NCBI RefSeq assembly: GCF_006345805.1
Contig: NC_042997.1
Location: forward strand, 152,458,001 to 152,522,000
Direction: 5' to 3'
Origin: Octopus sinensis
Taxonomy: Eukaryota
DNA: 64,000 bases
The notes beneath the pieces were generated by a model. That model saw only the letters and a list, made by a program, of their open reading frames with translations. It was not told the DNA's origin and did no database searches. Numbering within the stretch: the first letter of the stretch is position 1; each line of letters opens with the position of its first letter. Position numbers and translations under genes: made by a program. This document shows, in pieces, positions 2,864 to 64,000 of this stretch.

Positions 2864-3837
2864 TACAACAGCTGATATAGGAGTGACGTTAAGATGAAAC
2901 TCTACGGGATCGTCCAATGTCGAGAGATTATGACGTCAGGGCTGGTTTTGGTTTCTTCAGAAGTCAGCGGCCACCAACACATCACAGGAGATTGAACAGA
3001 CAGTTCAAAAACACGGGAGGTTGGTCAAATAACGTAAGGACTTCAGAAAGTTCTTCCTTGGCCATGCGATAAACAAAACAAAATGAAATTCAATTTTTAT
3101 CGCACAAATGAACTAAGAGTTAGAAAAAATTATTGAAAAGTGCAAATTTTGAAAAATGTGCTTTTCATGAGTGTTCGCTCTCATTGTTCCCTGAACATTA
3201 GTGTCACAGGGCCGGTTGCCAAGTTTCCATAACATGTAAGTGACTGGAATTACAACATTTTTCCCTGAACGGGACACCAATTTCGCGGCAGGGCTTCTCG
3301 TTTACATATAAGTGAACTTGAGCAACATAAAGTTTTTTTTTACTATACCCAATCCTTATTGATAACTGTATGCTAAGAACTTGAAAAAGATTTTGGCTGC
3401 TATTTTTAGCTCTTCCAGTGACCACATACAAGCTCAATCATTCTTGTCTCGTGTAGCTAGTTGGAGAAAGTGAATTTCGCAGCTGCAAAAGTTATATTGA
3501 CTGATGTTTTTAATCTTTATATAACTGTTTCATGTCAAGAAATTATTAATTTAAAAATGAATACTGAAAAAGAAAATTGAAAATATTCTTAACCATAGCA
3601 ACGTTATATCTTGCCTTTCCCTCTCACTCTTTTCACTTTTTAACTCCATCCCTCTTTCTCTTTTTCTGTCTTTCGTTCTTATTTTTTCATCTGTTACACA
3701 CTATTTCTCACTCACTCGCACTATATCACTTAAAATACGAATGAGGAATAATGGCACACTTGGAAGAACGTCGGTCAGTATATATATTTGGTTACATCCC
3801 GTATAGATCCATTTAGTTTAATGTGCTTAAAATATCG

Positions 3838-4455
3838 GTTTCAAATTTTGGCACAAGGCCAGCAATTTCGTGAAAGGTGGGTTAAGTCGATTACATCGAC
3901 CCCAGTGCTCAACTGGTACTTATTTTATCGACTCCGAAAGAATGAAAGGCAAAGTTGACCCCGGCGGAATTTGAACTTAGAACGAAATATCTATTTCTTT
4001 ACTACCCACAAAGGGCTAAACACAGAGAGGACAAACAAGGACAGACAAAAGAATTTAGTCGATTATATCGACCCCAGTGCGTAACTGGTACTTATTTAAT
4101 CGACCCCGAAAGGATGAAAGGCAAAGTCGACCTCGGCAGAATTTGGGCTCAGAACGTAGCGGCAGACGAAATACTGCTAAGTATTTCGCCCGGCGTGCTA
4201 ACGGTTCTGCCAGCTCGCCGCCTTACAATGTGTTTAAAACACTGGTTTCAAATTTTGGAAAAAGACTAGCAATTTTGAGGAGGGGGGAAGTCGATTACAT
4301 TGATCCCAGTGCTCAACTAGAACTTATTTTCTCCACCCCGAAAGAACGAAAAGCAAATTTGACCTAGGCAGAATTTGAACTCAAAACGTAAAGACGGACA
4401 AAATGCTGCTAAGTATTTCACCAGGTGTGCTGACGATTCTGTCAGTTCGCCGCCT
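3838..4455 (-). mobile_element. Array of tRNA-derived SINEs with Deu/Nin-like domain (family N here)
   Basis: Repeated cgaccccgaaaggatgaaaggcaaagtcgacctcggc...gaatttgaactcagaacgt. Heads at ~4222 and ~4455; one internal Tx1-type tail at ~3990-4060. Confidence 0.9.
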
Positions 4456-7419
4456 TATAATGTGTTTAAACTATTGAGACCAACATAATCAACTCTATTC
4501 TAAAATACCATGCAATGCAGTGCTCCAGCATAACCACAGTCCTATGACTAAATTCAAGTAAAGATTATAATTATTGGATTATGTAGTCCTAGGTGTACCG
4601 TGGAACGATCATGGCTGAGATGCTTTTGATTATAAGTATGTTCGATCAAGATTCATCTGGGAAGAAAACAAGGTACTAGCAAGTATCAGAATGCATCATA
4701 TAAATGGGTTCTTCTTTAACGTGCAGCCTATTGCAGTATCTATAGTCTACGCCGTGAAAGGACCTGATTTGGGTCAGTGTTATGTCTTAGAGTTACTCTG
4801 CACGCTAAAGTGTAAATTGAGTGTACTTGTATACAAGCTGAATAAAATAATGATTTTTAAAATTGTTTTAAAATGTTACGTATGCTTTATTCAGTTTACA
4901 GACAGACAACACAAATTATTATAAAGCAGCTTAAGTAATCACTATATTATTATTTTAAACCCCAGTAAGGGTGTTGAAGAAGCAGAATCTATAAAATGTC
5001 AGAAAAATGACTTTGATGTCTGTCTGAGTTCAAATTCTACCGGAGCTCTTTATCCCTCTAGGGTCAATTACATGAAATACCAGTTAAGTACTAAGAGCCC
5101 CTTCCCTCAAAATTTCTAGTCTTGTGCTTAAATTAGAAACCATTATTCTAAACTTCACTATTTGAAAATCTTAGTTATTTGATATACCAGATGTAGATAA
5201 GAGAAAACAGATTTAGTAGATGCTTGTTGCCTTTTCTCTTTTAGATTGATGTAATTAAGATGTATCAAAACATATATATCTTGTAAATATTACTAAACTA
5301 TACAACACTTGCTAGTCATCTTTAGTAGCTTGTACGTAACATCACTTAAGTTCAGTTAAGTTAAATGCTTTTCCATTCTTATTAACATAGAAGAAATAAT
5401 CAGATCAGTATGTAAGCATGTATTTATGTATGTAATTAAAAAATATTTTCATCCTATGTACATTGGTACATGTATATTTTGGGGGATGGGTTCAACGAAA
5501 CAAAGTTCGCTATTCGAAATGATATAACAGCAAAATGCTATATGGTGAACTGTAAAACATTTCTTGCATATTTTCAGTTTCGCTTACATATTGAATGTAC
5601 ACAGTACGTGTTAGCTACTTTCTTTGCTTGAGAACATCAGCTTTTCGTGATTATTACTTAAACACGTAGCAACATAACTAAGACGCCAATGAATTTGGGT
5701 ACAAATGTAAATTTATAATCTTGGTTTCGAAGTAGTTGTTTACAAAAGATCTCTTTTTGACTAATTTCGAATGTATGTGCGTAGATAGAGAAATATTTAT
5801 AAACATGTTCCTGACTGGAGTTCGAGAGTTTGTCGGCCGTCTGCTCGAGATGTAAAAAATATATACAAGACAAACTCAGGGTGATCCTGTCTTGTTCTTT
5901 CCGTCAGCCTTTAAATCTAAATCTTGCAAATTCCTGATTCCTATGTATGGTGAACATCTATGGCAGCAGTCCCTAGCAACCATTTCTTCGATTGGCATTT
6001 CGCAAAAATCCCTTCCGAATATTTTGCAAATAAATAAACAAAACCAAGAATCGTTATTTTAATCAGTCAAAATCTAATCTTGCATAGTGGTTTATAATCC
6101 ATGTTTTGTACGCTATTCCTTTTCGATATTTGCGTGGACTATTTCCCCCTGGATGAAAGTTTTACGGAAATCGATGAAAAAGAATATTTATAATGAAATT
6201 GTATTTAGATTTATAGTATTAGAGAATGTAAATAAAAGAAATTAGAACAAAGAATAACATCAGAATTTTAATTTTTTTAGAATACAATTAACTTCATCAC
6301 TGGTGTTAACGAATCAAACATGTACTTTAATTTCAAGATTAAAAAACAACAACAACAAAGAAAGAAAAAGCAAATGTAGAATAAATTATTATATCCAATA
6401 AATTATTAAATCCAATAAATAATGGTTGCATTGTGCTTCAATAGATTTTGCTATCTTAAAATATCAGCTTCGATATTTGATAAAGAGAACCTCATAACTT
6501 CTTTTCTTTACATACTCATAATTTACTTCATTCTTTACTGAAACCTATCTAAACCAGATATGAGAAAGGAAAAGCTAACAGCAAAAACTTCAATTCCTTC
6601 AAAAGACGGGTATACATCTTATAGATTAAACCATAATTCTTCATAGCTATTTTGTTGAAATAGAGTCTGAACTTCAAAGACAAATCAGCAATAATATTTT
6701 TTGTATCAGCCTGGAATAGATTTAAAACCCAATCGAGTATTATAAGCATTTTAAGATCTTTAAATGTAGTTTCTATATTTTTCTTAAATACTTGAAGGTG
6801 AAGATAGAAATATTCTGGTTTTGTTAAGTAAATTACCTATTAAACATAAACTACCAGCATGTGTTCCGCAAATGTCGACCGGGACATGACAGTAGTCCCT
6901 GTTAGCTATACTGATGTTCTAAATTGACATTTGGCTAGCTAATAAATCTGATTATTCTTTCTTTTGTTTAAAGAAACATCTTGTTCCTTTGCTAAAAAGT
7001 GTGACATCATTTCATTTGTTAAATATCAGAAAGATAAGCAATAACTGCTTTCTGATTTCATGATCCTAAAATATTATCTTGACCACAGTTAATGAAGTCC
7101 AAGAAGTAAATCGTAAAGTTTATGAATATATTGCAGATAGTTTCCTTTTGATAACTATCTATTCTCAGTATGTATATGAAGCTGTCTAAATCCTCTCTCG
7201 TTTCCATGGCCATATTAGTGAAATATATGTATATTTAGCGAGAGAATTTTAAAATCTTATTAACAATTTTGATTACAACTTAAGTTTCGTGTTATCTATA
7301 ACTAAAATGCTGTGCAGTTAAATGTTACATATGAATTACACAGTGGATGGTAAAAATATTTAGAATTGCTCTTAAGTGGATTATAAATCCACAACGACTA
7401 CTAATAACAGAAGTTGCAC

Positions 7420-7632
7420 AGGTTTCAAATTTTGGTACAAAACCAGCAATTTTAAGTGGGGTTGGGGTTGGGGGGTAAATCGATTACATCGCTTCTAGTG
7501 CTCAACTCATACCTATTTTATCGACCTCGAAGGATAAAAGGAAAAGTCGATCGCGACGGAATTTGAACCTCGAACGTAAAGAGCTGGAAGAAATGCTGCT
7601 AAGAATTTTGGCCGACTCGCAAACGATCTTGC
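7420..7632 (-). mobile_element. Family N SINE with ancestral tail
   Basis: ggtttcaaattttggtacaaaaccagcaatt...gctgctaag; head-to-head with the copy at 7675. Confidence 0.75.
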
Positions 7633-7674
7633 CAGCTTTTTGCTTTTGCACATGCAATATTGATTTTAAAATAA

Positions 7675-8250
7675 GGCGGCGAGCTGGCAGAAACGTTAGC
7701 ACGCCGGGCGAAATGCTTAGCAGTATTTTGTCTGCCGCTACGTTCTGAGTTCGAATTCCGCCGAGGTCGACTTTGCCTTTCATCCTTTCGGGGTCGATTA
7801 AATAAGTACCATTTACGCACTAAGATCGATATAATCGACTTAATCCGTTTGTCTGTCCTTGTTTGTCCTCTCTGTGTTTAGCCCCTTGTGGGTAGTAAAG
7901 AAATAGATATTTCGTCTACCGTTATGTTCTGAGTTCAAATTCCGCCGAGGTCGACTTTGCCTTTCATCCTTTCGGGGTCGATAAATTAAGTACCAGTTAC
8001 GCACTGGGGTCGATGTAATCGACTTAATCCCTTTATCTGTCCTTGTTTGTCCCCTCTATGTTTGGCTCCTTGTGGGCAATAAAGAAATAAGAAACGTTAA
8101 CACACCGGGCGAAATGCTTAGCGGTATTTCGTCTGTCTTTACGTCCTGAGTTCAAATTCTGCCGAGGTCGACTTTGACTTTCATCTTTTCGGGGTCGATA
8201 AATTAAGTACCCCTCCCCCAAAATGTTCGGGCCTTGTGCCTTGAGTAGAA
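7675..8250 (+). mobile_element. Family N SINE trimeric array
   Basis: Head ggcggcgagctggcagaaacgttagc. Two Tx1-type tails (~7845-7905, ~8030-8089) are each followed by resumed SINE body; ancestral tail at the end. Confidence 0.9.
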
Positions 8251-9425
8251 AAAAATAACGATTTTAAAATAAATCTCCCAAATTTTGTAAATCGTTTAAC
8301 CTTTTGCATTAATTTTCCTGAAATAGCAAGTGCACATAGGTCAGCAATAAAGTCTCTTTATCATATTCGGTATCTTATTCAAGTTGTAAACAAAATTTAG
8401 TTGTTTTAAGTCACCATAAACCTTGTTTCCAGCGTCTTTTCATTGATTTTAGCCGAGACTAGTCTATTACTAAGCAAAATTATATCAGTTGTATTTGGTA
8501 ACAGCATGCCAAAAATTTCTTTCACAGAAGGTGAAATAATAGTCTGTCTCATGCTATAAGGTTTCTACATTTAGCTGTGAACTTTGAAATTTCGTAAGCT
8601 GCAATAAGCTCTTACCCAACTTTACTTTTTAAAATAGTCTTTAGGCGTGACTGCGTGATAATAATTTTGTTTCTCAGCTACATGGTTCCGGGTTCACTCC
8701 CACGGCGTAACACTTTGGATAAATCTCTTCTACTATAGCTCCGAGCCGACCAAAGCCTTGTGTGTGGATTTGGAAGACGGAAACTGAAAGAAGCCTGGTA
8801 TATAAATGTATATATATATATATAGATGTGTGTATTTTCCCTTGTTAACAATTAACACGGGAAAAATAGATAAATAGTTACCAGGGTAGCAAAAAATCAC
8901 ACAAGTAAAGTGGTTGTAACTCCTAATTTTTAAAGGTAGACACTTCGGGTTTACGTGAAATTTTTTTGTATAATATATAAATAAATAAATGGAGTTTAAC
9001 GCAGGTGTAATTCAAATACTTTTACTTCCAATACATGTTTCGAAGATATCACTGATATTATTCCAAAGGCATAAATGGTGTAAAACAATGTAATATTCTC
9101 TTCGGGAAGTGAAGAAATGAAACTCGTCAATAAGACGTTTATTCATATCTCTAAATGTTGAGTAATGTTGAGTAATTGATAGAAATTCTTTTAGATAAAT
9201 GTAACGACGTGCTTCCAATGTAAAATTGTACTTTATTATGAGTAATAATTTTACACTGCTATATAGAATTTTAAATTTTAGAGTTACTTGACATGAACTT
9301 AATTCTGTTGGAATTGACTTCAGATACAATAACCTTGTTATTAATATTTCTAGAGGGATGGATGGTATTAGCTAAATTAATGTTATTATTAGTAAATGTA
9401 TTAATATTTAACAGGTTGTTATTAT

Positions 9426-19049: not shown

Positions 19050-20798
19050 GGCGGCGAGTTGGCAGAAACGTTAGCACGCCACTCGGTGTTTGTGTTGTTA
19101 ATATTCGGCTGTGCTGAACAAGGTGAGATTGTTAATATTAAATTTGTTATATTATTAGAACTGTTAACATTGCTATTTGCTTGTTAAAAGCATTGTTGTC
19201 TCTAATTCCCCCACGGCGGTGGGAATTATATGAATTGATTTGAATTGTTTTGAAAACGAAATCTTTTTGGGGCAATAAGCCTGTAGGAAAAAAATTGTTT
19301 TTATTGGCGTGTTTGCCACAATGGATTTCAATAAAGAATACCCGTGTTTGTCACCAGTATCACCAACCTCACGAATCTTATCTCCGGTGGTATCGCTGAA
19401 AAAAAAAAGAAGAAATGCTTCAAAGGGAATTTATGAATCTAAAAAGGGACATTGACGTTCCAAGTATAAAAAATAGAGTGTCAAGTGCGGCTCCAGCAGG
19501 AAAAAAATGTTTTGCTTAGGCAACAGGAGGAAAAATAAGACAAATTACGACAGAGGAAAGCAAATTGCTGAAATATAAAAATAAGACACAAAAGTGGAAG
19601 TAATTCCACCAAAAGAATTAATGAAGGCTGAGAAAAGAAAAGTAACTATATATAAAACTTTTAATGCTAAATCCAAGAAAATAGATAAAGTAAAGGAGGA
19701 AGCAGTAGAAAAATGTTTAAAGAACATTTGGAAAGATATTGAATACATCACAAGAGAAAGAAGGTTCGGCACTGGATGTTCGAATGGTGAGCGAGGAGAA
19801 AGCTCAAATTCATTCAATAGAATCATTGAGAACAAACGAGGTAATTCCCATGTATATGGGGAGGAGAACCTCCCAAGGAAGAATAACTAGAATCCCACCA
19901 GAAATGGATGCAGTCCGGTTGGTGGCGGCTGTGACGATGGACTTGGAGGGAAAAAAATCACACTTCTCCAAGCCACCGCCACGGAAAAACAAGATTGGCG
20001 AGGCCAAACACTAAACATATTAATCCAGACGGAACTTCAGACGCTGGAAGAAATTCCAGAGACCATTGAGATAGGGGAGGAAGACCTTGTAGTATTTATA
20101 GAGGGCAGAAAACTGACCCACCTGATTTCCTGACGAAAGAAGGTAAGAATTGTTTTCTCATAGTAGTTGCAATCGCGAAAGAAGCGGTATGGAAGACGAG
20201 AATGAAAGGAGTAATGACAGACAGCTTCATCACTGGCCTCGACCTACAAAGATATTTCGCTTTTCATTTAAAAAGGAATGTGAGGCTGGAAAGAAGATGC
20301 CTGTCAGAGAAAATGTTTAATGATAGATGGAAGTATGTGATACAAATGTTGTGCATGAGTGTAACCATGTGAATATGACAAAGGTCTACCACCGATATCA
20401 GTAGGGGATTGGGGCTCGTAGGGCCAGGAACTTAACCATCACTCCATCTGTTTTGTCTTTTGTTGTGTTTATCATTCGTATTTATATTTTGTATTGAATT
20501 TTTAATATTACCTTAATGTTATACTATTTGTTTGTATCTGACCTCAAAATCAGATTATGTTGTCCCCTCTATGTTGGCCCCAAGTGGACAATAAAAAATC
20601 GAGAAACATTAGCACGCCGGGCGAAAAGCTTAGTGGCATTTCGTCCGTATTTACGTTCTGAGTTCAAATTCCGCCGTGATCGACTTTGCTTTTCCTTCTT
20701 TCAAAGTTAATAAAATAAGTAACAGTTGAGCACTGGGATCAATGAAACTGACTTTCCTCTCTACCGAACCTACTGGCTCTTGTGCTAAAATTTGAAAC
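19050..20798 (+). mobile_element. Family N SINE host interrupted after its head (19050-19080; resumes 20602)
   Basis: ggcggcgagttggcagaaacgttagcacgcc ... agaaacattagcacgccgggcgaaaagcttag...aaatttgaaac. Confidence 0.85.
19081..20601 (+). mobile_element. Tx1/L1-like non-autonomous derivative (ORF1 part + ORF2 C-terminus + 3' UTR) with 17-bp TSD
   Basis: ORF1-like peptide is homologous to the one at 44028-44656 (RRFGT, PMYMGR, LVAAV). C-terminus FLIVVAIAKEAVWKTR is homologous to 24775. TSD matches 16/17. Confidence 0.8.
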
Positions 20799-20799
20799 A

Positions 20800-23653: not shown

Positions 23654-23682
23654 ATATATATATATATATGTGTGTGTGTGCG

Positions 23683-25143
23683 GTCCTCGGGGAGGCCGGG
23701 TTTGGCCCGACTTTCCGCGGTTGGATTGTTGCTTTGCACAACAATATCTTCCGAGTGAATGGTTTTTTTAAAATCAAAACCGTTCAAGATTGAACGCTCA
23801 GTACGCCAGGGATGTTCGCTGTTACTGCTTGTGTATGTATTGGCTCTTGAACCATTGCTGCGGAAGTTGGAGGTGTTAGGGAGCGTGCCGAATGATCTGT
23901 GGTGTGGAAGAGGAGCTACTGCGTATGCGGATGACATCTGCATCACCGTGCCTGAAGAAGGGCAGCTTCCTTATGTGGAAAACGCCATCAAAGGATACGA
24001 GGCGGTTGCAGGAGCAAAGGTTAACCAGGACAAGTCGGTCGGCTTGCAACTCGGCACCTGGAGGGGCAAGTCGATGTCATCCAATAACAACGTGGGGTGT
24101 TGGACAGAAGGTCCGTGTAAGTTGCTAGAGGTCTGGTTCAGTACAAACCTCCAGATAGAGAAGAATTGGAGCGAGGTCATGGGCAGAATAACTGCCCTAA
24201 CCCAGACTTGGTCTGGGCGGGTGTTATCCTTGCTAGGGAGGGTAGTGGTGTGCAGATGTTCATAGCATCTGCTATCACCTGCTGCCTGACTGTTGTGCCT
24301 TGCCCCGATTTGTGACCGAACAAGTTGGAAAGAATCCTTTTCCATTTTTTGTGGAAGGGAGGAAAGTCACTTGTGAAGCGCCCTGTCTGCTGCCAAAAAT
24401 CGCAAAAGGAGTTCCACTGCGGATTTCTATTGCGTGTTAGTGGAATTTATGTCAGACGATGTCCTGGGGGAGACGTTGGGCTTCGATGGAAATCAGTTGA
24501 TCAACCCGTTCAGGAGAACTTTCGGGCCGGGGGTATCTGGATAATTACCAGAAATCCCTGGCTTGGCAGTGATACCGTTCGGCTTTGCCTATTCAAGAGG
24601 TGCGGGCGGGACAGAGAAACTGTCTTGCACGCCTTCATGGAGTGTCCGGAATTATCGGGACTGATAGCTTTTGTCGATCAACTGCTGTCAACGATGGGAA
24701 GAGTACAGCTATCGGCTGAGTTTATTATCAAGTTTGTGTCACCCGCTTCCCGTAACGGGGAAAGGAAGGCTTGTTTTTTGTGCGTAGTAGCCATACTGAA
24801 AGAAACAGTATGGAAGACGCGTGTTAGTGGTATAGTGACAGGTACTTTCGTCTCCGGCCAGGTGTTGGTTAACTTCATTTGTTACCACAGTAAAGGTTCG
24901 AACCTGGCGGTTGAATGCCTTTCCTTCAGTCACACGTTGCAAAATTTGCAATGATCATCAAGCTTATATTGAAATTTTTAAAAGGAAAAAAAAAAAAGAT
25001 ATAATTTTTAACAGCATGACATTTGTATTTTATCGTTCGAAACTTTTTCCTTCGTAATAAGCAACTTCTTCCCCTCTACGTTTGTCTGTCCTTGTTTGTC
25101 CCATCTATGTACGGCTTTCATGGCCAAATTATGAAATAAAGAA
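23683..25143 (+). mobile_element. 5'-truncated Tx1/L1-clade LINE (RT and C-terminal relic)
   Basis: VRQGCSL..LALEPLL, AYADDI, KVNQDKS, FLWKG, C..CGRDRETVLHAFMECP. 3' tail tttgtctgtccttgtttgtccc...aataaagaa. Confidence 0.88.
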
Positions 25144-26922: not shown

Positions 26923-27834
26923 ATGAAAATTCTTGAACTACAGATCAAGGAGACCAAAAATCCAAAGAGGTCTCTGTTAGAGTGAACTATAACTGCAGAG
27001 CAAATATTTTCATTTTAAAGATTTAATGTTTTAGCAAAGACATTCCGCTTTCGCTAATTCATCGATAGCTTCCCGCCTCTCTGTCTCTCTCCCTCCCCGT
27101 CTCTCTCTCCTAATCTCCCCCTCTCTCTCTCTCTCTCACACACATATTCAGTTGCTCTTTTAGAACATGGCCAGATGTTTCATCTCTCGTCTCGTTAGTA
27201 AAGACTAGTTACATTTGGATGTTAGGTATATATCGTTAAAAAAAAAGTGAGAAGCAGGAATTGGATGGGAGTTTGAATGAGGCAAAAAGAGAAAGAGGCT
27301 GGAAAGGCGAATAAGATATGAAGGAAGTGAGAAGGTAGGGGACTGAAAAGTGTAGAAAGCAATGTTTAAAATAATGTGAAGGAGAAGGGGATAGAAAGTT
27401 AACATGAATACTGTTAGAAGTATTAGTAAGTATTCTTGGAGTTATACAAACAATTTTAAAAGATAACAGGATAAAGCAATGGAAGAATGCTAATAATATA
27501 AATACCGCCTATGCTAATTCAGAAAATAAGAATATTTATTTGGCTAAAAAAGAATACAATTTCTAGGAGCATGCGTTGGTTACTTTATATAAATTAGGTA
27601 TAACACTTCAGATAAATGGTATAATAATGTACTGGAAGAAGCTCGAAATGTATTTGGTAAGCTGAAGATTGTATGGGACTTTGTCATCCAGACAGCTTGA
27701 ATAAATGAATACCTTTTGCCAATATCCTTATACAAGCTATGGTAAAATGGGAGTGCTTATAACAAATATTTCAATATCTTCCGACAATTTTATCTACAAA
27801 TAAACACGACCTTATGAGCCAGTGAAAAATATTG

Positions 27835-28305
27835 CTTTCAAAGTTTTGCACAATGTCAGCAAGTTCCGGGAAAGAGATAAATCAATTACATCGAGCGCAA
27901 TGAGGAACTGGTACTTGCTTTGTGATGCCGAAAGGATGAAAAGCAAAGTCGACTTCAGCGGAATTTGAACTCAGAACATAAAGACGGACAAAACGCTGCT
28001 AAGCATTCTGCCCGGTGTGCTAACGATTCTGTTAGCTCGCCATCCTGAGCCAGTGGAAAATATTGATCATATTATTATATGTTTTAAAGGGCGGCAAGTG
28101 GAAGAATCGTTTGAGCATCAGAATAATTGATTTCCGTATTTCTCTCGACTCTTTACTTTCTGAGTTCAAATTTTATCGAAGTCAATTTTATTTTTCCTTC
28201 TTTCGGGATCCGTTAAAATAAATAGCCAGTCAAATATAGGTGTCGAAAATAGTGACTTACTCCTTCCACAACATAACTGTTGGCTTTGTGCATAAATCAG
28301 ACACC
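27835..28305. mobile_element. Two family N SINEs head-to-head (27835-28045 minus; 28090-28305 plus)
   Basis: Family N body motifs in opposite orientations. Confidence 0.75.
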
Positions 28306-34859: not shown

Positions 34860-35065
34860 CTTTGAATTTTGGCACAAAGCCAGCAATTTCGGGGAAAGTC
34901 TTAGTCGATTACATCGACCCCAGTGCTCGGCTGATGCTTATTTTATCGAACCCGAAAGGATGAATGATAAAGTGAAGCTCGACAGAATTTTAACTCAGAA
35001 CGTAAAGCCGGACAAAATACTGCCAATCATTTTACCGTTTGCTAACGATTCTGCTAGCTCGCCTT
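34860..35065 (-). mobile_element. Family N SINE
   Basis: ttttggcacaaagccagcaattt...gctaacgattctgctagctcgcc. Confidence 0.8.
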
Positions 35066-35957: not shown

Positions 35958-36719
35958 CTGTGTGTGAATGTGTGTGTGTGATTTGTTGTGTATTTCACGA
36001 GACATTACAGGTGATAATTGTCCTGATTAGGCCCGGGTCAGTTCTAGTTGAGTTAACCTATGATCAAAATCTTTTCAGTCGTTATCATCTAGTCTTTTAT
36101 TGTACGTGCAAGAAACCTAGGATCACGTCGTAATAATAATTTTATTGATATATATATATCAAGTAACATTTTTATTACCTACTAGGAATCAGATTAATCT
36201 TGGTGATCTTAATAATTTAGAAGAAACAATTCAAAGCTAACTATTTTGATGAAAGAAATGTTTTATGACATTTTCACCGCCACTAATATACTAATCTATT
36301 ATCCTTTATAATTTTCTCTCGACATTTATTCTCTGTTTTGCAATTCGTTAATGATCTTTCAAAAGCAAATATCTATCATTCAAATAGTTTCCAATGATTA
36401 GAAACAAATAATGAACAAATTTCTCTAATTCTGTAATCATTTGAGTAACTCTTATTTCTCGACATTCTGGCTTGTTTTCGTACATTATAGATACGTAATT
36501 TTAGAAAGAAATTTTACTATCTAATTCTTTCAAATCCTCGTAAAAGCAAAGGAAAACGTGCCTTGTGATCGGTTAAATTGGTAGAATAGATATGTGATAT
36601 GTGTTTATTACGAATAACTCAGACATTCAGTTATTACTAGGCCGTTATAAAAGACACCAACCAGAAACTGGCCCACTGTTAAACTGTATGAAACATTGAT
36701 GCAAATACTAATATAATAA

Positions 36720-37257
36720 TCCTTTCTACTATAGGCACAACACCTGAAATTTTGGGGGCGAGGCCTAGTCGATTACATCGACCCCAGTGTTTCACAGGTA
36801 CTTAATTTATCGACTCCGAAAGGATGAAATGCATAGTCGACCTCGGCAGAATTTGAAGTCAGACAAAATACCTATTTCTTTACTACCCACAAGGGGCTAA
36901 ACACAGAGAGGATAAACAAGGACAGACAAACGGATTAAGTCGATTATATCGACCTCAGTGCGTAACTGGTACTTATTTAATCGATCCCGAAAGGATAAAA
37001 GGCAAAGTCGACCTCGGCGGAATTTGAACTCAGAACGTAGTGGCAGACGAAATACCTATTTCTTTACTACCCACAAGGGGCTAAACATAGAGTGGACAAA
37101 CAAGGATAGACAAACGGATTAAGTCGATTACATCGACCCCAGTGCGTAACTGGTACTTAATTTACCGACCTCGGAATTTGAACTCAGAACGTAGCGGCAG
37201 ACGAAATACTGCTAAGCATTTCGCCGGCGTGCTAACCTTTCTACCAGCTCACCGCCT
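36720..37257 (-). mobile_element. Family N SINE trimeric array
   Basis: Two Tx1-type tails (~36873-36940, ~37057-37122) each abut ggtattt(c/t)gtc; ancestral tail at 36720-36770. Confidence 0.9.
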
Positions 37258-43131: not shown

Positions 43132-44833
43132 GCTATTTCTTTATTACCCATAAAAAGGCTATACAAAGATGCTTGATGATATAAGACAACACAACATAAG
43201 GACAGTACAAAACATAAACTCGAGGAACTAAAATGATAAAAAGTGGGGAACGAGTAAGAAGAAAAAGAAAAGAAAACGAATGATATGAAAGAATGACAAG
43301 ATGAGGCACAGTGCGCACTCGACCCCCGAAATCAAGTGGTTACATTAATACATGATTTTTACAGTCTTCTTTTTCTTTTCATTTTTAACATTAAAAGTTC
43401 ACATTAAAACATGATTTTACAGTCTTTTCTTTTTTTATTTTTAAAATTAAATGTCCACCTGTTCAATTTTCCTTCTTATAGCCTCATACTCCACCACAGA
43501 CGGCGGAATGTCACGCAACCATATCAGGTCGATCATTTTTGCAACTTCTCCGAATGTATCCAAAAATCTCTCATGCCTGTCGTCCTGTACCAAAACACCC
43601 CTGTCATGTACGTCAAATTCTTCTCTGGGCAGCTTCACCCTCGCCACTCCCTTCCACTTTCCTATTCTTTTCTCCACCTCTGCACTTTTTTTCGTAGATT
43701 ATCAGCATACCCTTATAATTACATTCTACTTCAGTTGCTTCTATTTCCACCATTTGCGTACTTTTAGGTTTAAGTTGCTACTTACATTTTTGTGGCTTCT
43801 TGGTTTCTGTTGAATGTCTCTTGCCTTTGTTGTTTTTCTTCTTTTTGGGTTGATAAAGTCATCACTCCCCTCTTTCACTTCGATCCTTTCCTTCTCCTTT
43901 ACATCGTTGGCGCGCTCAGCATCACCTCTATTCTCTCTCGTTTCTATTTTCTTTTCCATCTCCTTTTCTTTTCCCTGTTCCTCCTCATTTACACTCAGCG
44001 TAAATTCAAACAAGGGACACTGAACCTTCAGCCTTCCTCCTTCCTCAGTCTCAATATTTTAGGGGATTCGGTCAATGTCTTCGAAAGTGGCAAAAAAGCC
44101 ACATTTCGACTACGAATCTCCACCAGTTTCGCCTCTTCGTCTCTCCACACTGGTCCTAATTCAGGGTTGTTTTCTGTTGTCGCCAAAATGGCTGCAACCA
44201 ACCACTCGGCTTTAATTTCGAGTGGCATACTTGGTATTCTAATCCTCACGCTAGGCCTTCCCATGTAAGAGGGTAACAGCGTCACCTTTTCTGTTCCGAG
44301 GATGTTGATGGAATCCTAGGCTGCTTCTTCCTTGGTGGCAAACCTGACCGCCACCGTACCGAATTTTCTACCTCTACCAATTTATTCTGCTTCTTTAACT
44401 ATGTCACCCAAACACTCCTCTATGTCTTCTTCCAACAGTCTTTCAACTTACTGGTGGCGACCGCCTGTGTGAGGTACACCACCGTCATTTCTTCCTTTTC
44501 CTTCATCGTCTCCTGCGGAGGCATCAGCTTGATGGTATCTCCTTTCTTCTTCACCAACTGTTCATTCTTCAAAAACTTCTCCATATCTATCACTACCGGC
44601 GTTACTTCCATTGGCGCAACTGCTTTCGCCGCAGTGGCTTTTACATAGCTCGCCATAATACGGCTACGTTTCTCCTTTCACCTAAAATGGTGGTGGTGGT
44701 GGGAGAACAATGAAAACACAACAACCGCAACAAACAACACGCTCGCGCGGTAACAACAAATTCAACAAAATTTCTCTACAAGTCTCAAAAGCACAACCTT
44801 TCTCCTCGAAGACTCCGGTCAGAATGACTCATC
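43132..44833 (-). mobile_element. Tx1/L1-like ORF1-only derivative with 14-bp TSD
   Basis: ORF1 from 44656 (MASYVKA..GRKFGTV..PSYMGR..WLVAAIL). Tail atgggtaataaagaaata. TSD ataat(c/t)ctgtaaag at 43118-43131 and 44834-44847. Confidence 0.78.
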
Positions 44834-45384
44834 ATAATTCTGTAAAGCTTATTATAGAAATAGCCGGAAAAACATTTAAATCTTTATTTCCGAATGGAAA
44901 TAAGTTTGCAGTAACGAACGGTTTCAACATTGGATAATATTTCCAAAGAAACATAAGATATTTTCGTTTTATTCTACAATTTTAGGAATAATCTTCAAGA
45001 CTGAGAATACGGCGAGGAAACAAGTCTTTACGTGATTACTAGAAATGCTATAAGCAGTGATCAGATCGCCTTCAAATTACATCGCACCGCCTTAAAGAAG
45101 GAAGGACTCACTGGGGAGTTCGAGTTATACAATATCTGAAAAACATAAACGAGATAATCTGTAAATATTGGCACTTCGAGAAGATGCGAAACACATCATT
45201 TTAGGAAATGAGTCTCGAAGTAGATACAGCTATAAACTATAGCATACAATATATTGTGTTAAAATCCTATGGCTGCTATAGACGACGAAAGCTACCGGTA
45301 GGATACCAACTTAATCTTTTGTAGGTAACCGTTGACAGCTTTTTCCATCTAAAAGGTATTTTTTAAATCCAAAAATAATATTGG

Positions 45385-45597
45385 CTTCGAATTTTGGCAC
45401 AAGGCTAGCAATTTCGGGGTGAAGAGATAAGTCAATTACATCGATCACTGTGATCAACTGGTACTTATTTTAACGATTCGGAGAGGATTAAAGGCAAAGT
45501 CGACCTCAGCAGAATTTGAACTCAAAACGTCAAGACAGACGAAATGCCGCGAAGCATTTTGCCCGGTGTGCTAACGATTCTGCCAGCTCGCCGCCTT
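45385..45597 (-). mobile_element. Family N SINE
   Basis: Full body with ancestral tail. Confidence 0.85.
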
Positions 45598-47289: not shown

Positions 47290-48545
47290 CTTGTTTTTTT
47301 ATTGCCCACAAAGGGGCCAACGAAAAGGGGACAAAAAAGGACATGTGGGGACATAGAACAAACAAAACAAAGTAAAAAACAACAACACAAAAACGTATAT
47401 TACAAGATGAATGATAAATGAAATGAAGTTCCACAACCCCACCTCTGAGTCGCTTCATTTATACCTTTTAGTCACTTTTTATACTTCGTACCTACCAGTA
47501 TATCGAACTTGTACTCCTCCAACAACCGTACTTACGTCAATTGCCACGGCAATTTGTCTATGTCCAAGTCCATATCCCAAATTTTGTATCCGCTTTTAAA
47601 CTGATTTTTTTCCTTTTGTTCTTCGCTCAATAAGAGACCGCAATGCCATCCTTGAACGTTATCATATTTATTTGTTTCAACTGCTCTGATATCTTTCCAT
47701 GTTTTTATCTCTTCGGACAGATTTCTGTTTGAATTGTCATACATTAGTGCGTAATGATCCCTTTTCATTTTTCCGGAGGTGGGGAAGTTTGAGGGCTTGT
47801 TTCTGTATGCGATTTTTTGTGTCAGAGAATGGGGTAGGTTCAGCGTCTGTAAGGGGAGGTTGGGAGGAAAAGGGTGTGGTGGATGTTGGGTGGTTGTGGG
47901 ATGGGTTTCTGTATCTGTTTTGCTTGGCTTTTTTCCATATTTTTTTCCATAATTTTTTTCTCGCACGATGTGGGCCTCGTGTTTCTTTATGCACCAAAAT
48001 ACTTTTGCATTTGAACTTCACTCGCATTTTCTGCCCGACTCGATTTTGTTCCGATACAGCTATATATTACTGTGTATCATTGCATGCTTTCTATTACACC
48101 AGATGGTGGTTTTAGAGTTATTTGTCGTCCATTCTCTTTTTAGAGTTTGTCTAGTTAGTTCTAAGTCAAAGTGGTTTAGATAGAATTTTTCTATATCTCT
48201 TCAGGCGCTTGCAAAGGAGCTTACCTTTCGCAGTTGCCTCGCTGTGCACGTTGTTGTTAGCGCTTACGTAACATATAGAAATTTGTGCCTTTGTGTTTCT
48301 GTTGGAGGTTGCGGTGATGTTGTTTCTTTTTACTCGTAGAGAAATCCCGCTTGTTGAGGTAGTGTTAGTGACGACATTGACGTTGAGAGAGATTGCATTT
48401 CCTTCAAAATTGTCTTTTTCGTTTTTTGTCTCACTTGTAGTTGTTGTTATTCACTTGTCTTTGTTGATGTTTCGATCGGCATTTGTAGAGGCAACGTTGG
48501 TGGTTGTTGTAGTGTTCTATTTTAAGAGTGAGAATGCGGCATCTA
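47290..48545 (-). mobile_element. Tx1-like derivative whose 3' end abuts a degenerate family N body (47165-47290)
   Basis: Minus-strand tail gtccccttttcgttggcccctttgtgggcaataaaaaaa resembles the tails at 20560 and 8050. Interior decayed. Confidence 0.55.
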
Positions 48546-61850: not shown

Positions 61851-63623
61851 TTTCTGCAACATTTTGAGCAATACATGAAAGAACTGGAGCGGTAGTAGTT
61901 TTGTTAAACGTCAAAAAAATTGTCCTGCAGCATTTATTCCATTTCTTTACTTCTGAATTCAAATCCCGCTATGGTCATTTTACTTTCATTTTCTCGGCGT
62001 CGAGAAAATAAAGTACCAGTCAAGTTACTGTTTGTTAAAGCTATCAGCAATATCTCTCCTTAAAATTGTTTGTTATTGAGTTTAAATCAGGAACTACATT
62101 TAACATGTTCTTGTTGAGAAGAAAAGGAAACTCATTGAAACCGTAGAATGATTGGGTAACTTGCAAATACAATCATATCTGGAAAACTAGAAAGTAAAAC
62201 TAGAAGCTGCCAACCGAAAAGAAACTCATTCCGATTCCTAATCGAAACCACAACACCTTATTTGCAGTATAAATATAATCCCGGAAAATGGTAAAATTCT
62301 CATGTTGCATTTCGACTCCTTTTATCTTAGCGGTTTTGTTCCAATAAAAAGTAAAGGCAATGTATTTGGATGTATAAGATATATTTCTCTAATATTCCAT
62401 GTGCTTTATTATCAATCAATTTTCATCATAAGGCAGCTGTTGTTATTGCTGAAAGTTTGAGTGCCTACGGTTAAATACCGACAAGATAAAAAATGCCCAC
62501 TGCTTAATTGTTGACATTATAAACGCCAGCAGGTGCTTTAGCAGAAAAATTTTCCAAAACCTAACTACATAATTTTCTAAAATCGTTTTTAAACTAAAGC
62601 AGTTTATTAAACTGAAAGTTGACATGACTAAAAAAGAAAACTGAAATAATTGAAATAGTTAAAAATACATTATGCAATATACTAAAAGAATAATGGTGCC
62701 AGTAATAACTTCAAGAATTACAGCATTTCATTCAAACAAAACGATAAATTGTGAGACGTTGACCTGAAGGAAAATAGGAAGCGAGTCAGAGTGTAAGTTG
62801 CGAAAACTTTTTTAATATTGTCATTAACCATTACTTATAAATATATTTGGCCACAAGATGACGGCAATATGACTGTCGGTATTATTCTGAGTAGCACAAC
62901 TTTAGTGTAATTTCTTTGTTTATTTAAAAAAATTATTAATTTGGTTAGTATTTGGCACGCGCACAAAATGCCAGAAGTCAAAATGCATATAAAACAAAAC
63001 AAGCTAGATTAAGTTGCACACAAACGTTCACACAGGTACGCATACACATACCTAAATATATACATACATATACAAAAATACGCGCACACACACATATGCA
63101 AATATTTGTATGGGTGAAAGCAATCTTTTCAAGAATTCTTTTTGTGTACAAAGTGTTTATTAAATTACAATGCATCATTTAAACGCTGACATATGCTGTT
63201 TGCTAAAGACTTTTTTCATGCTGCTTCTACAAGCTATTTCGAGATATTTCTTTCACACATTCCCATAGAGTGTTTCATTTGCAGAAATAATTAATAATCA
63301 TTTGTCTTATTTAACAAGAAAATATATAATTAGCTACAACATAAATTATTTAATTAACTCCTCGTTTTTATTGCGTTTCTTTTAATTTTATGATGAACTT
63401 GGGACAAAATCTCTCTCCAAGAATTCTTTTGGTACATTAAAAGTCTATTAATATTAATAAAAGTTAATTCACGTTAAGTTATGTGTTAGCATTCTTTAAA
63501 ATCCCAACATCATACATATATGCCTTCATTCTTTCACCCAGTGTTGCATCCAAAACAAACTTTCATAGATTTTATATCACATTTATTCACAACACATCAC
63601 TTTCCCAATATGTATATAATATA

Positions 63624-64000
63624 AGGTGGCGAGCTAGCAGAATCGTTAGCACGCTGGGCGAAATGCGTAGCCGTATTTCGTCAGCCGTTACGTTCTGAGT
63701 TCAAATTTCGCCGAGGTCGACTTTGCCGTTCATCCTTTCGGGGGTCGATTAAATAAGTACCAGTTACGCACTGGGGTCGATATAATCGACTTAATCCGTT
63801 TGTCTGTCTTTGTTTGTCCTCTCTGTGTTTAGCCCCTTGTGGGTAGTAAAGAAATAGGTATTTCGTCTGCCGCTACGTTCTAAGTTCAAATTCCGCCGAG
63901 GTCGACTTCGCCTTTCACCCTTTCGGGGTCGATTAAATAAGTACCAGTTACGCACTGGTTTCGATATAATCAACTCAATCTGTTTGTTTGTCCTTGTTTG
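63624..64000 (+). mobile_element. Family N SINE array running off the window end
   Basis: Head, Tx1-type tail ending 63856, body resumes ggtatttcgtc, second tail starts ~63975. Confidence 0.9.

Follow-up and report, generated by a model that had tools for sequence, protein, structure and literature searches.

A B-tailed SINE of Octopus sinensis preferentially inserts at two sites within older copies of its family

The array at 7673..8250 of the 64,000-nt stretch of Octopus sinensis DNA analyzed here (contig NC_042997.1, positions 152,458,001 to 152,522,000; hereafter the window) contains SINE tails that are followed by more SINE, and it raises the question of whether this element inserts into its own relatives and, if so, how it finds them. 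A natural copy at 7673-7905 was used as the reference for all SINE positions, giving a SINE length of 233 nt. As a previous, sequence-only reading of the window had claimed, all six complete B tails (ends at 3992, 7905, 8089, 36873, 37057, and 63856) run directly into resumed SINE body, five of them at reference position 50/51 (site 1, g(g/a)tattt) and one at position 17 (site 2, agaaacgtta). A seventh B tail, 40 bp past the window end (locus L044), joins position 17. The same reading had three arrays closing with the ancestral tail. This is correct for the array at 3837, which ends in an ancestral (A) tail, whereas those at 8090 and 36872 close with a third, related tail type, the C tail (ccccaaaatttc-ggccttgtgcc-tagagtagaaaaga). 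The features of the window are listed in Table 1.

Table 1. SINE arrays, insertion sites, and LINE-related elements of the window
Position	Strand	Feature	Remarks
3837..4224	-	Array: B unit (4224-3992), then older unit (3991-3837) with ancestral (A) tail	Site-1 junction
7673..7905	+	Array unit 1: head and body of SINE, with B tail of the TAGT variant	A-box-like and B-box-like motifs by eye
7689..7705	+	Site 2 in head (position 17, AGAAACGTTAGCACGCC)	Within A-box-like motif
7722..7737	+	Site 1 in head (position 50/51)	Decayed form of GGTATTTCGTCTGCCG in this copy
7906..8089	+	Array unit 2: headless, B tail variant CAAT	Begins at site 1
8090..8250	+	Terminal older unit: internal deletion, C tail at end	Begins at site 2
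19050..19080	+	Older SINE head ending in 5′ copy of 17-bp TSD (19064-19080)	At site 2
19081..20601	+	Internally deleted L1/Tx1-type LINE in site 2: ORF1 remnant, ORF2 C-terminus, B-like 3′ end	tblastn to LINE ORF1, ORF2
20602..20799	+	3′ TSD copy (20602-20618) and rest of interrupted SINE with A tail	
23680..25139	+	5′-truncated LINE of the type at 19081..20601	
36715..37257	-	Array: B units (37257-37057 and 37056-36873), then older C-tailed unit	Both junctions at site 1
43134..44700	-	ORF1-bearing LINE derivative, B-like 3′ end	
47292..47780	-	3′ part of LINE derivative, B-like end, then decayed SINE body	
63623..64000	+	Array: B unit, then second unit that exits the window	Site-1 junction at 63857; tail of second unit joins site 2

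In the focal array, unit 2 differs from unit 1 at 6 of 84 positions, and the terminal unit differs from both at 13-14 of 84; the array at 3837..4224 showed 12 of 84 differences. An older A-tailed SINE (7421-7640, minus strand) lies head-to-head with the focal array, and further older A-tailed SINEs were found at 4228-4456, 27826-28041, 34865-35063, and 45377-45597. Being short, dispersed, TSD-flanked, present in very high copy number, and having a 3′ end in common with an autonomous LINE, the repeat has the properties of a SINE with a LINE-derived tail. Neither ARAGORN nor Rfam returned a match for the presumably tRNA-like head, whose A- and B-box-like motifs were recognized by eye only; by resemblance, we tentatively take the repeat to be a CORE-type SINE of the octopus OR/OK type. 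Contigs from four sequencing runs over 6900-9100 were unable to bridge the array, and none spans it or displays an empty site. Relative to the tail, run X20 had a far lower summed contig depth at the site-1 junction (7907) than X15 and X18 did, which hints weakly at differences in site-1 arrays from species to species.

Insertion into older members of the family

The claim of the sequence-only reading that B-tailed SINEs enter older copies of the family at two fixed sites holds, and the clearest cases are full-length copies flanked by TSDs. Searching by pattern for loci where site 1 is followed by another complete head yielded 36 matches at 24 places, and 14 of the 18 loci displayed proved to be nested insertions, in which an old head and a 13- to 17-bp duplication are followed by a full B SINE, the second copy of the duplication, and the remainder of the older copy (the exceptions being L133, L138, L143, and L150). 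At L142 a private deletion of the target is present in both copies of the TSD, at L141 and L149 old A and C tails stand at the end, and L155 is nested within an outer TSD. In 138 arrays, 185 of 197 junctions fell at the two positions, the loci being partly selected on their junctions; the terminal units were of C (50), A (7), B (64), or other (17) types. Divergence across the junction, which the earlier reading had suggested comparing, showed that the upstream unit is usually the younger one: divergence was lower in the first unit than in the terminal C unit for 22 of 31 arrays (p=0.003). In addition, the A/T allele at +5 of site 2 agreed across the insert in 11 of 12 cases (p=0.01).

Among 98 tails not scored as self junctions, 61 had a TSD. 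The measured TSDs were mostly 11-21 bp, where 11 bp was the floor of the search, and in 46 of the 54 that were not low-complexity the duplication began at the tail end (offset 0). As the TSDs begin exactly where the tail ends, the GGTA, AGAA, and TATA words found there are bases of the target.

Full second heads are rare, at 36 matches in 24 places compared with 19,045 junctions (well under 1%), and therefore most arrays are not individually demonstrable as insertions. The same rarity suggests that the 5′ end is usually joined seamlessly through homology. A simple model in which the whole 5′ TSD is retained fails, since the target's allele was seldom found in the first unit of seamless arrays (6 of 28 at +14 and 4 of 29 at +16); the crossover would thus usually lie before +14. 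Heads of arrays seem older than those of solo copies (109/1141 vs. 144/2268, p=0.001), and their age does not track that of the terminal unit (rho 0.03, n=29). As a mark of target-derived heads, the allele at head position 45 was tried and discarded, as arrays did not differ from solos of the same class (p=0.75) and the allele is confounded by subfamily. None of three pattern matches proved to be a full-length SINE with both junctions at site 2. At two loci with site-1 insertions (L381 and L382) the old head is trimmed to roughly position 35 and is followed by a complete new one, with a target deletion and no duplication.

Frequency of self-insertion and the partner LINE

Across the 2.72-Gb genome, exact B1 30-mer tails occurred 44,298 times and were followed by GGTATTT in 19,045 cases (43%); exact tail ends numbered 94,030. 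When the first 100 of these were counted by hand, site 1 was joined by 39 of 77 T-variants vs. 1 of 23 C-variants and site 2 by none of the 77 and 3 of the 23, for a total of 43 self junctions. Conversely, 90 of the first 100 of 1,887 site-2 junctions were preceded by C-variants, and of 17,088 C-variant tails, the first 100 were counted by hand and included about 20 that join site 2 and about 7 that join site 1. Multi-unit arrays inflate such tail counts, and in a blind sample of 40 stretches of 10 kb (400 kb) self junctions were less frequent (4 of 21 when scored by script, 7 of 23 when scored by eye). In the same 400 kb, site 1 of the SINE accounted for about 10 of 2,186 GGTA words and 10 of 103 GGTATTT words. 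Because site 1 makes up so small a share of GGTA words and yet receives 39 of 77 T-variant tails, the excess is roughly hundredfold, and its use is far above chance.

These counts show that the window, with self junctions at every complete tail, is not typical of the genome. Targeting is a bias and not strict specificity, with more than half of all copies elsewhere; accordingly, the sequence-only reading was right about the two sites, where 43% of B1 tails lead into GGTATTT, but its view of B-tailed SINEs as specific for their own family was too strict, as over half of the tails lie at non-SINE sites with ordinary TSDs. Under Kojima's rule that a target-specific element has over 20% of its flanks in one repeat, this SINE would count as one from the 43% and the 43 of 100, with the blind sample (4/21 to 7/23) on the border, and it is not strictly site-specific in the manner of R2, with nearly all copies at one site. 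Tails elsewhere sit at GGTA, AGAA, or TATA words, and sites 1 and 2 are themselves the GGTA and AGAA words of the SINE head. Outside SINEs the tail variant predicts the word as well, with T-variants at GG in 15 of 26 cases and C-variants at AG in 11 of 16 and at GG in none. The earlier claim that the tail variant predicts the site thus survives as a split between T- and C-variants, but what is predicted is a four-base word anywhere and not the SINE site itself.

A minor third self site was seen at the GGTA word of position 138, where insertion is antisense (L260, L040, and L185). One subfamily, with the head GCGTAGCCGTATTT (window 63623-63680 and solo copies), has lost the GGTA of site 1 and inserts mostly at TATA words; it is possibly immune to being targeted. 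G was present at position 45 in 10 of 12 informative T-variant solos of the TATA class. The head of a second abundant SINE family is hit by both the B SINE and the LINE at a GGTAAG(T/A)AGCTTG word (L013/L181; window 25139).

The link to Tx1-like elements that had been suggested for the B tail was borne out, as the tail aligns to the 3′ ends of a large group of LINEs of L1/Tx1 type (45-56 matches in 54-68 aligned nt). These LINEs were traced by walking outward from ORF1 matches; a genome search with the RT family, which matched mostly small contigs, was left unused. They encode an ORF1 with a zinc knuckle (zf-CCHC) and an ORF2 with an AP endonuclease (Exo_endo_phos), a reverse transcriptase (RVT_1), and a zf-RVT domain, and the nearest solved structure is L1 ORF2p (140 bits vs. 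84 bits for R2). The partner LINE belongs to the L1/Tx1 group and is likely a Tx1 element, and no named Tx1 sequence was found among 120 listed homologs or 10 clusters. Like Tx1, it prefers a multicopy target and makes TSDs of about 15 bp, being found in site 2 with TSDs of 14-17 bp. Seven of nine LINE arrays examined, which were picked on the look of their junctions, start after a SINE head at site 2, and four were seen ending in the rest of the SINE. The closest tail donor seen is the LINE at 23680..25139, whose 3′ end has a 23-nt exact run in common with the start of the SINE B tail. A bias toward self-insertion, with a partner LINE on the same target, is thus well supported.

In a search for LINEs at site 1, a first pattern gave no matches and a second gave 43, of which 20 of 20 checked were SINEs. 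One subfamily of LINE derivatives ends at a fixed point just upstream of the start of a transposase that looks Mariner-like by eye (L098, L099, L102, and L110), a parallel to Tx1-Mar. Derivatives of about 1.7 kb carrying ORF1 only, many with open frames of 400-520 aa, numbered 30,608 first-look candidates; they have a near copy of the site-2 target at their 5′ ends and occur in head-to-tail arrays mixed with full LINEs (L044, L192-L220; G000 C2:169.35-169.37 Mb and C2:57.14-57.16 Mb). These arrays are reminiscent of HeT-A. At L082, an 87-bp tandem repeat consists of a LINE 3′ tail and a few target bases.

How the target is chosen

Taken as a whole, these results make it probable that a B-tailed SINE with the 3′ end of an L1/Tx1-type LINE and TSDs of 11-21 bp prefers, though not exclusively, older kin at two sense-strand sites, and that it is copied there by LINE enzymes through target-primed reverse transcription. 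As for what directs it to those sites, a relaxed endonuclease may nick steps from a pyrimidine run to a purine, and transcription of the SINE, which has no terminator, may continue past the AAAGAAAUA tail end into the flanking DNA, giving an RNA whose 3′ end would pair with the nicked strand. A copy residing within a SINE would carry long homology to all members of the family, and the resulting feedback would lead to strong self-targeting. We consider the chances of this combination of relaxed nicking, read-through pairing, and feedback to be about even. A pairing step of this kind has models in R2Ol, in which the 3′ end of a read-through RNA anneals to the nicked target and promotes priming (PMC6530143, as excerpted), and in L1, where priming on four matching bases is described in the excerpted text of PMC3649969. 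In those elements a fixed site in rDNA or poly(A) serves as the flank, whereas each octopus SINE would receive its flank from the copy that gave rise to it, with differences from one subfamily to another.

The alternative is that proteins alone choose the site, with L1/Tx1 families whose endonucleases recognize site 1, site 2, or (TA)n each binding one SINE subfamily. This is a serious contender, although we think it rather doubtful. LINE families in this genome do differ in target (site 2, the fixed Mariner-like site, and their own 5′ ends), and the excerpted text of PMC4494074 describes crocodilian Tx1-Mar families that differ in site use within Mariner-N4. However, no LINE was found at site 1 in the two pattern searches, and SINE TAAT tails go to GGTA although their last 20 nt are identical to those of the site-2 LINE, which goes to AGAA. 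Moreover, non-SINE targets match only 4-5 bases, whereas the SINE sites are over-used about a hundredfold. Read-through pairing is favored over endonuclease specificity because the SINE tail has no T-run terminator, because the same 20 nt lead to different words, because matches outside SINEs are so short, and because the antisense GGTA at position 138, although equally abundant, is rarely used (3 times vs. 150 sense self junctions at selected loci, and once vs. 40 in the first 100 of 94,030 tail ends). Locus L236, whose copy stops inside the body that lies downstream and has a long direct repeat on its flanks, points the same way.

Should pairing be correct, it may amount to a heritable, RNA-guided memory of the target, in which new copies arrive in DNA resembling the flank of their parent, lineages that happened to land in the family became self-targeting, the partner LINE took the same SINE as a safe haven, and the site is set by RNA and not by the endonuclease. 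We put this forward tentatively, as somewhat short of an even bet; if true, LINE and SINE would form a pair that has the SINE itself as its target. Tens of thousands of events make the system a natural experiment on the roles of endonuclease and RNA-DNA pairing in LINE target choice, for which few elements have been studied so far. The evolution of safe havens is touched in two ways, by a SINE that breaks the promoter-bearing head of its relatives while keeping its own and by a LINE that lands in its own parasite.

Two known systems come close. Alu also inserts into its own family, in sense orientation and at one fixed nucleotide, with about 19,000 events by L1-type machinery (PMC2836564; Levy, Schwartz, and Ast, 2010, as excerpted). 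In the excerpted text that process involves an A-rich linker, poly(A) priming, and a small share of Alus, whereas the octopus SINE has its sites in the head, which is presumably tRNA-like, shows no poly(A), has a self share of 20-45%, usually joins seamlessly at the 5′ end, and differs in site between subfamilies. In crocodilians, SINEU-3 and Tx1-Mar share a Mariner target and form tandem copies around the TSD (PMC4494074; Kojima, 2015, in the excerpted text); there too a SINE and a Tx1 LINE prefer one repeat, with two hot regions, a 16-bp TSD, and tandems from sequential insertion. According to the same excerpts, however, the Mariner target is unrelated, the head of SINEU derives from snRNA, and no common LINE 3′ end was found for SINEU-1, in contrast to the octopus SINE, which shares its tail with the LINE and whose LINE targets the family of its own parasite. 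An octopus repeat annotation lists L1-Tx1 and many unclassified SINEs, and the words "nested" and "target" are absent from its excerpted text (PMC13282606); the excerpts of PMC4758252 and PMC7265360 hold nothing direct on a self-inserting octopus SINE. We found no account of an octopus SINE/LINE self-insertion system in the literature covered; Repbase, Dfam, SINEBase, subscription papers, and supplements lay outside its scope and may hold one.

Growth of the arrays

As the insert is homologous to its target, its 5′ end would usually be joined somewhere in positions 1-62, or collapse there at a later time, so that a single head and a seamless junction remain. Arrays may then grow by re-insertion at the regenerated site together with local unequal exchange or slippage. 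The sequence-only reading had attributed the arrays to repeated insertion. Nested insertions agree with this, but insertion is not the only process, as adjacent B units share variants along their length (0.22-0.50 vs. 0.03-0.28 when shuffled) and 13 of 75 adjacent pairs lie within 2.1%, compared with 0.2% across loci. These observations, together with 65-bp head repeats at several loci, are what would be expected if the arrays were mainly SINE-derived minisatellites that arose by DNA-level tandem duplication from a few seed insertions. Nevertheless, tandem duplication could not produce B-to-A or B-to-C arrays with fixed junctions, and 57 of the 138 arrays have an A or C tail at their end; in addition, 66 of the 138 have a single B unit, and no near-identical pair was found among 31. 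We therefore regard duplication as an unlikely main source of the arrays: it accounts for their growth and not for their origin. Related cases are the rodent B2 and Dip SINEs, of which 40-49% of copies are in multimers of up to eight units (PMC8466645, as excerpted), and the squamate satellites built by local expansion of tandem units from SINE parts (PMC10702118, as excerpted). The B2 and Dip units are full-length and head-to-tail, with their origin left open in the excerpted text, whereas the octopus units are headless with fixed internal joins. The squamate satellites are likewise locally expanded tandems but are ascribed in the excerpts to duplication, without targeted retroposition or a partner LINE.

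A still less probable explanation, which we judge to be quite remote, is that the dimers and trimers are composite SINEs of fixed structure, each copied in one piece from a master locus. Outer TSDs do flank whole arrays, L236 suggests that read-through RNAs can be copied, and distances between first units covary with those between last units in B-ended arrays (Mantel r=0.41, p=0.001), a covariation that age and local duplication could produce. In contrast, when loci were compared, derived alleles of one unit were not linked to those of another (r=0.04, p=0.30, n=23; r=0.007, p=0.44, n=31), unlike what would be expected of a fixed, Alu-like dimer, which the sequence-only reading had named as an outcome that would speak against insertion. 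Locus pairs near-identical in both units were likewise absent (0 of 465 and 0 of 741), and the terminal units are of many types; occasional copying of whole arrays may nonetheless occur. Finally, the suggestion that B tails are very short Tx1 3′ ends, each with a target duplication of about 120 bp, although the tail is indeed homologous to LINE 3′ ends, was rejected as virtually impossible, given that the flanking bodies differ by 15.7% on average with none of 31 pairs near-identical, that variant sharing beyond +24 equals that of shuffled controls, that upstream bodies carry B-subfamily alleles, and that measured TSDs are short (11-21 bp) and solo full-length B SINEs common.

Since the arrays mimic fixed dimers or satellites, repeat libraries, copy counts, and age profiles of this very abundant family are probably distorted. 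Tandem repeats of 65-66 bp made up of the SINE head alone were observed at L131, L133, L138, L144, and L157 and have apparently grown from full-length self-insertions.
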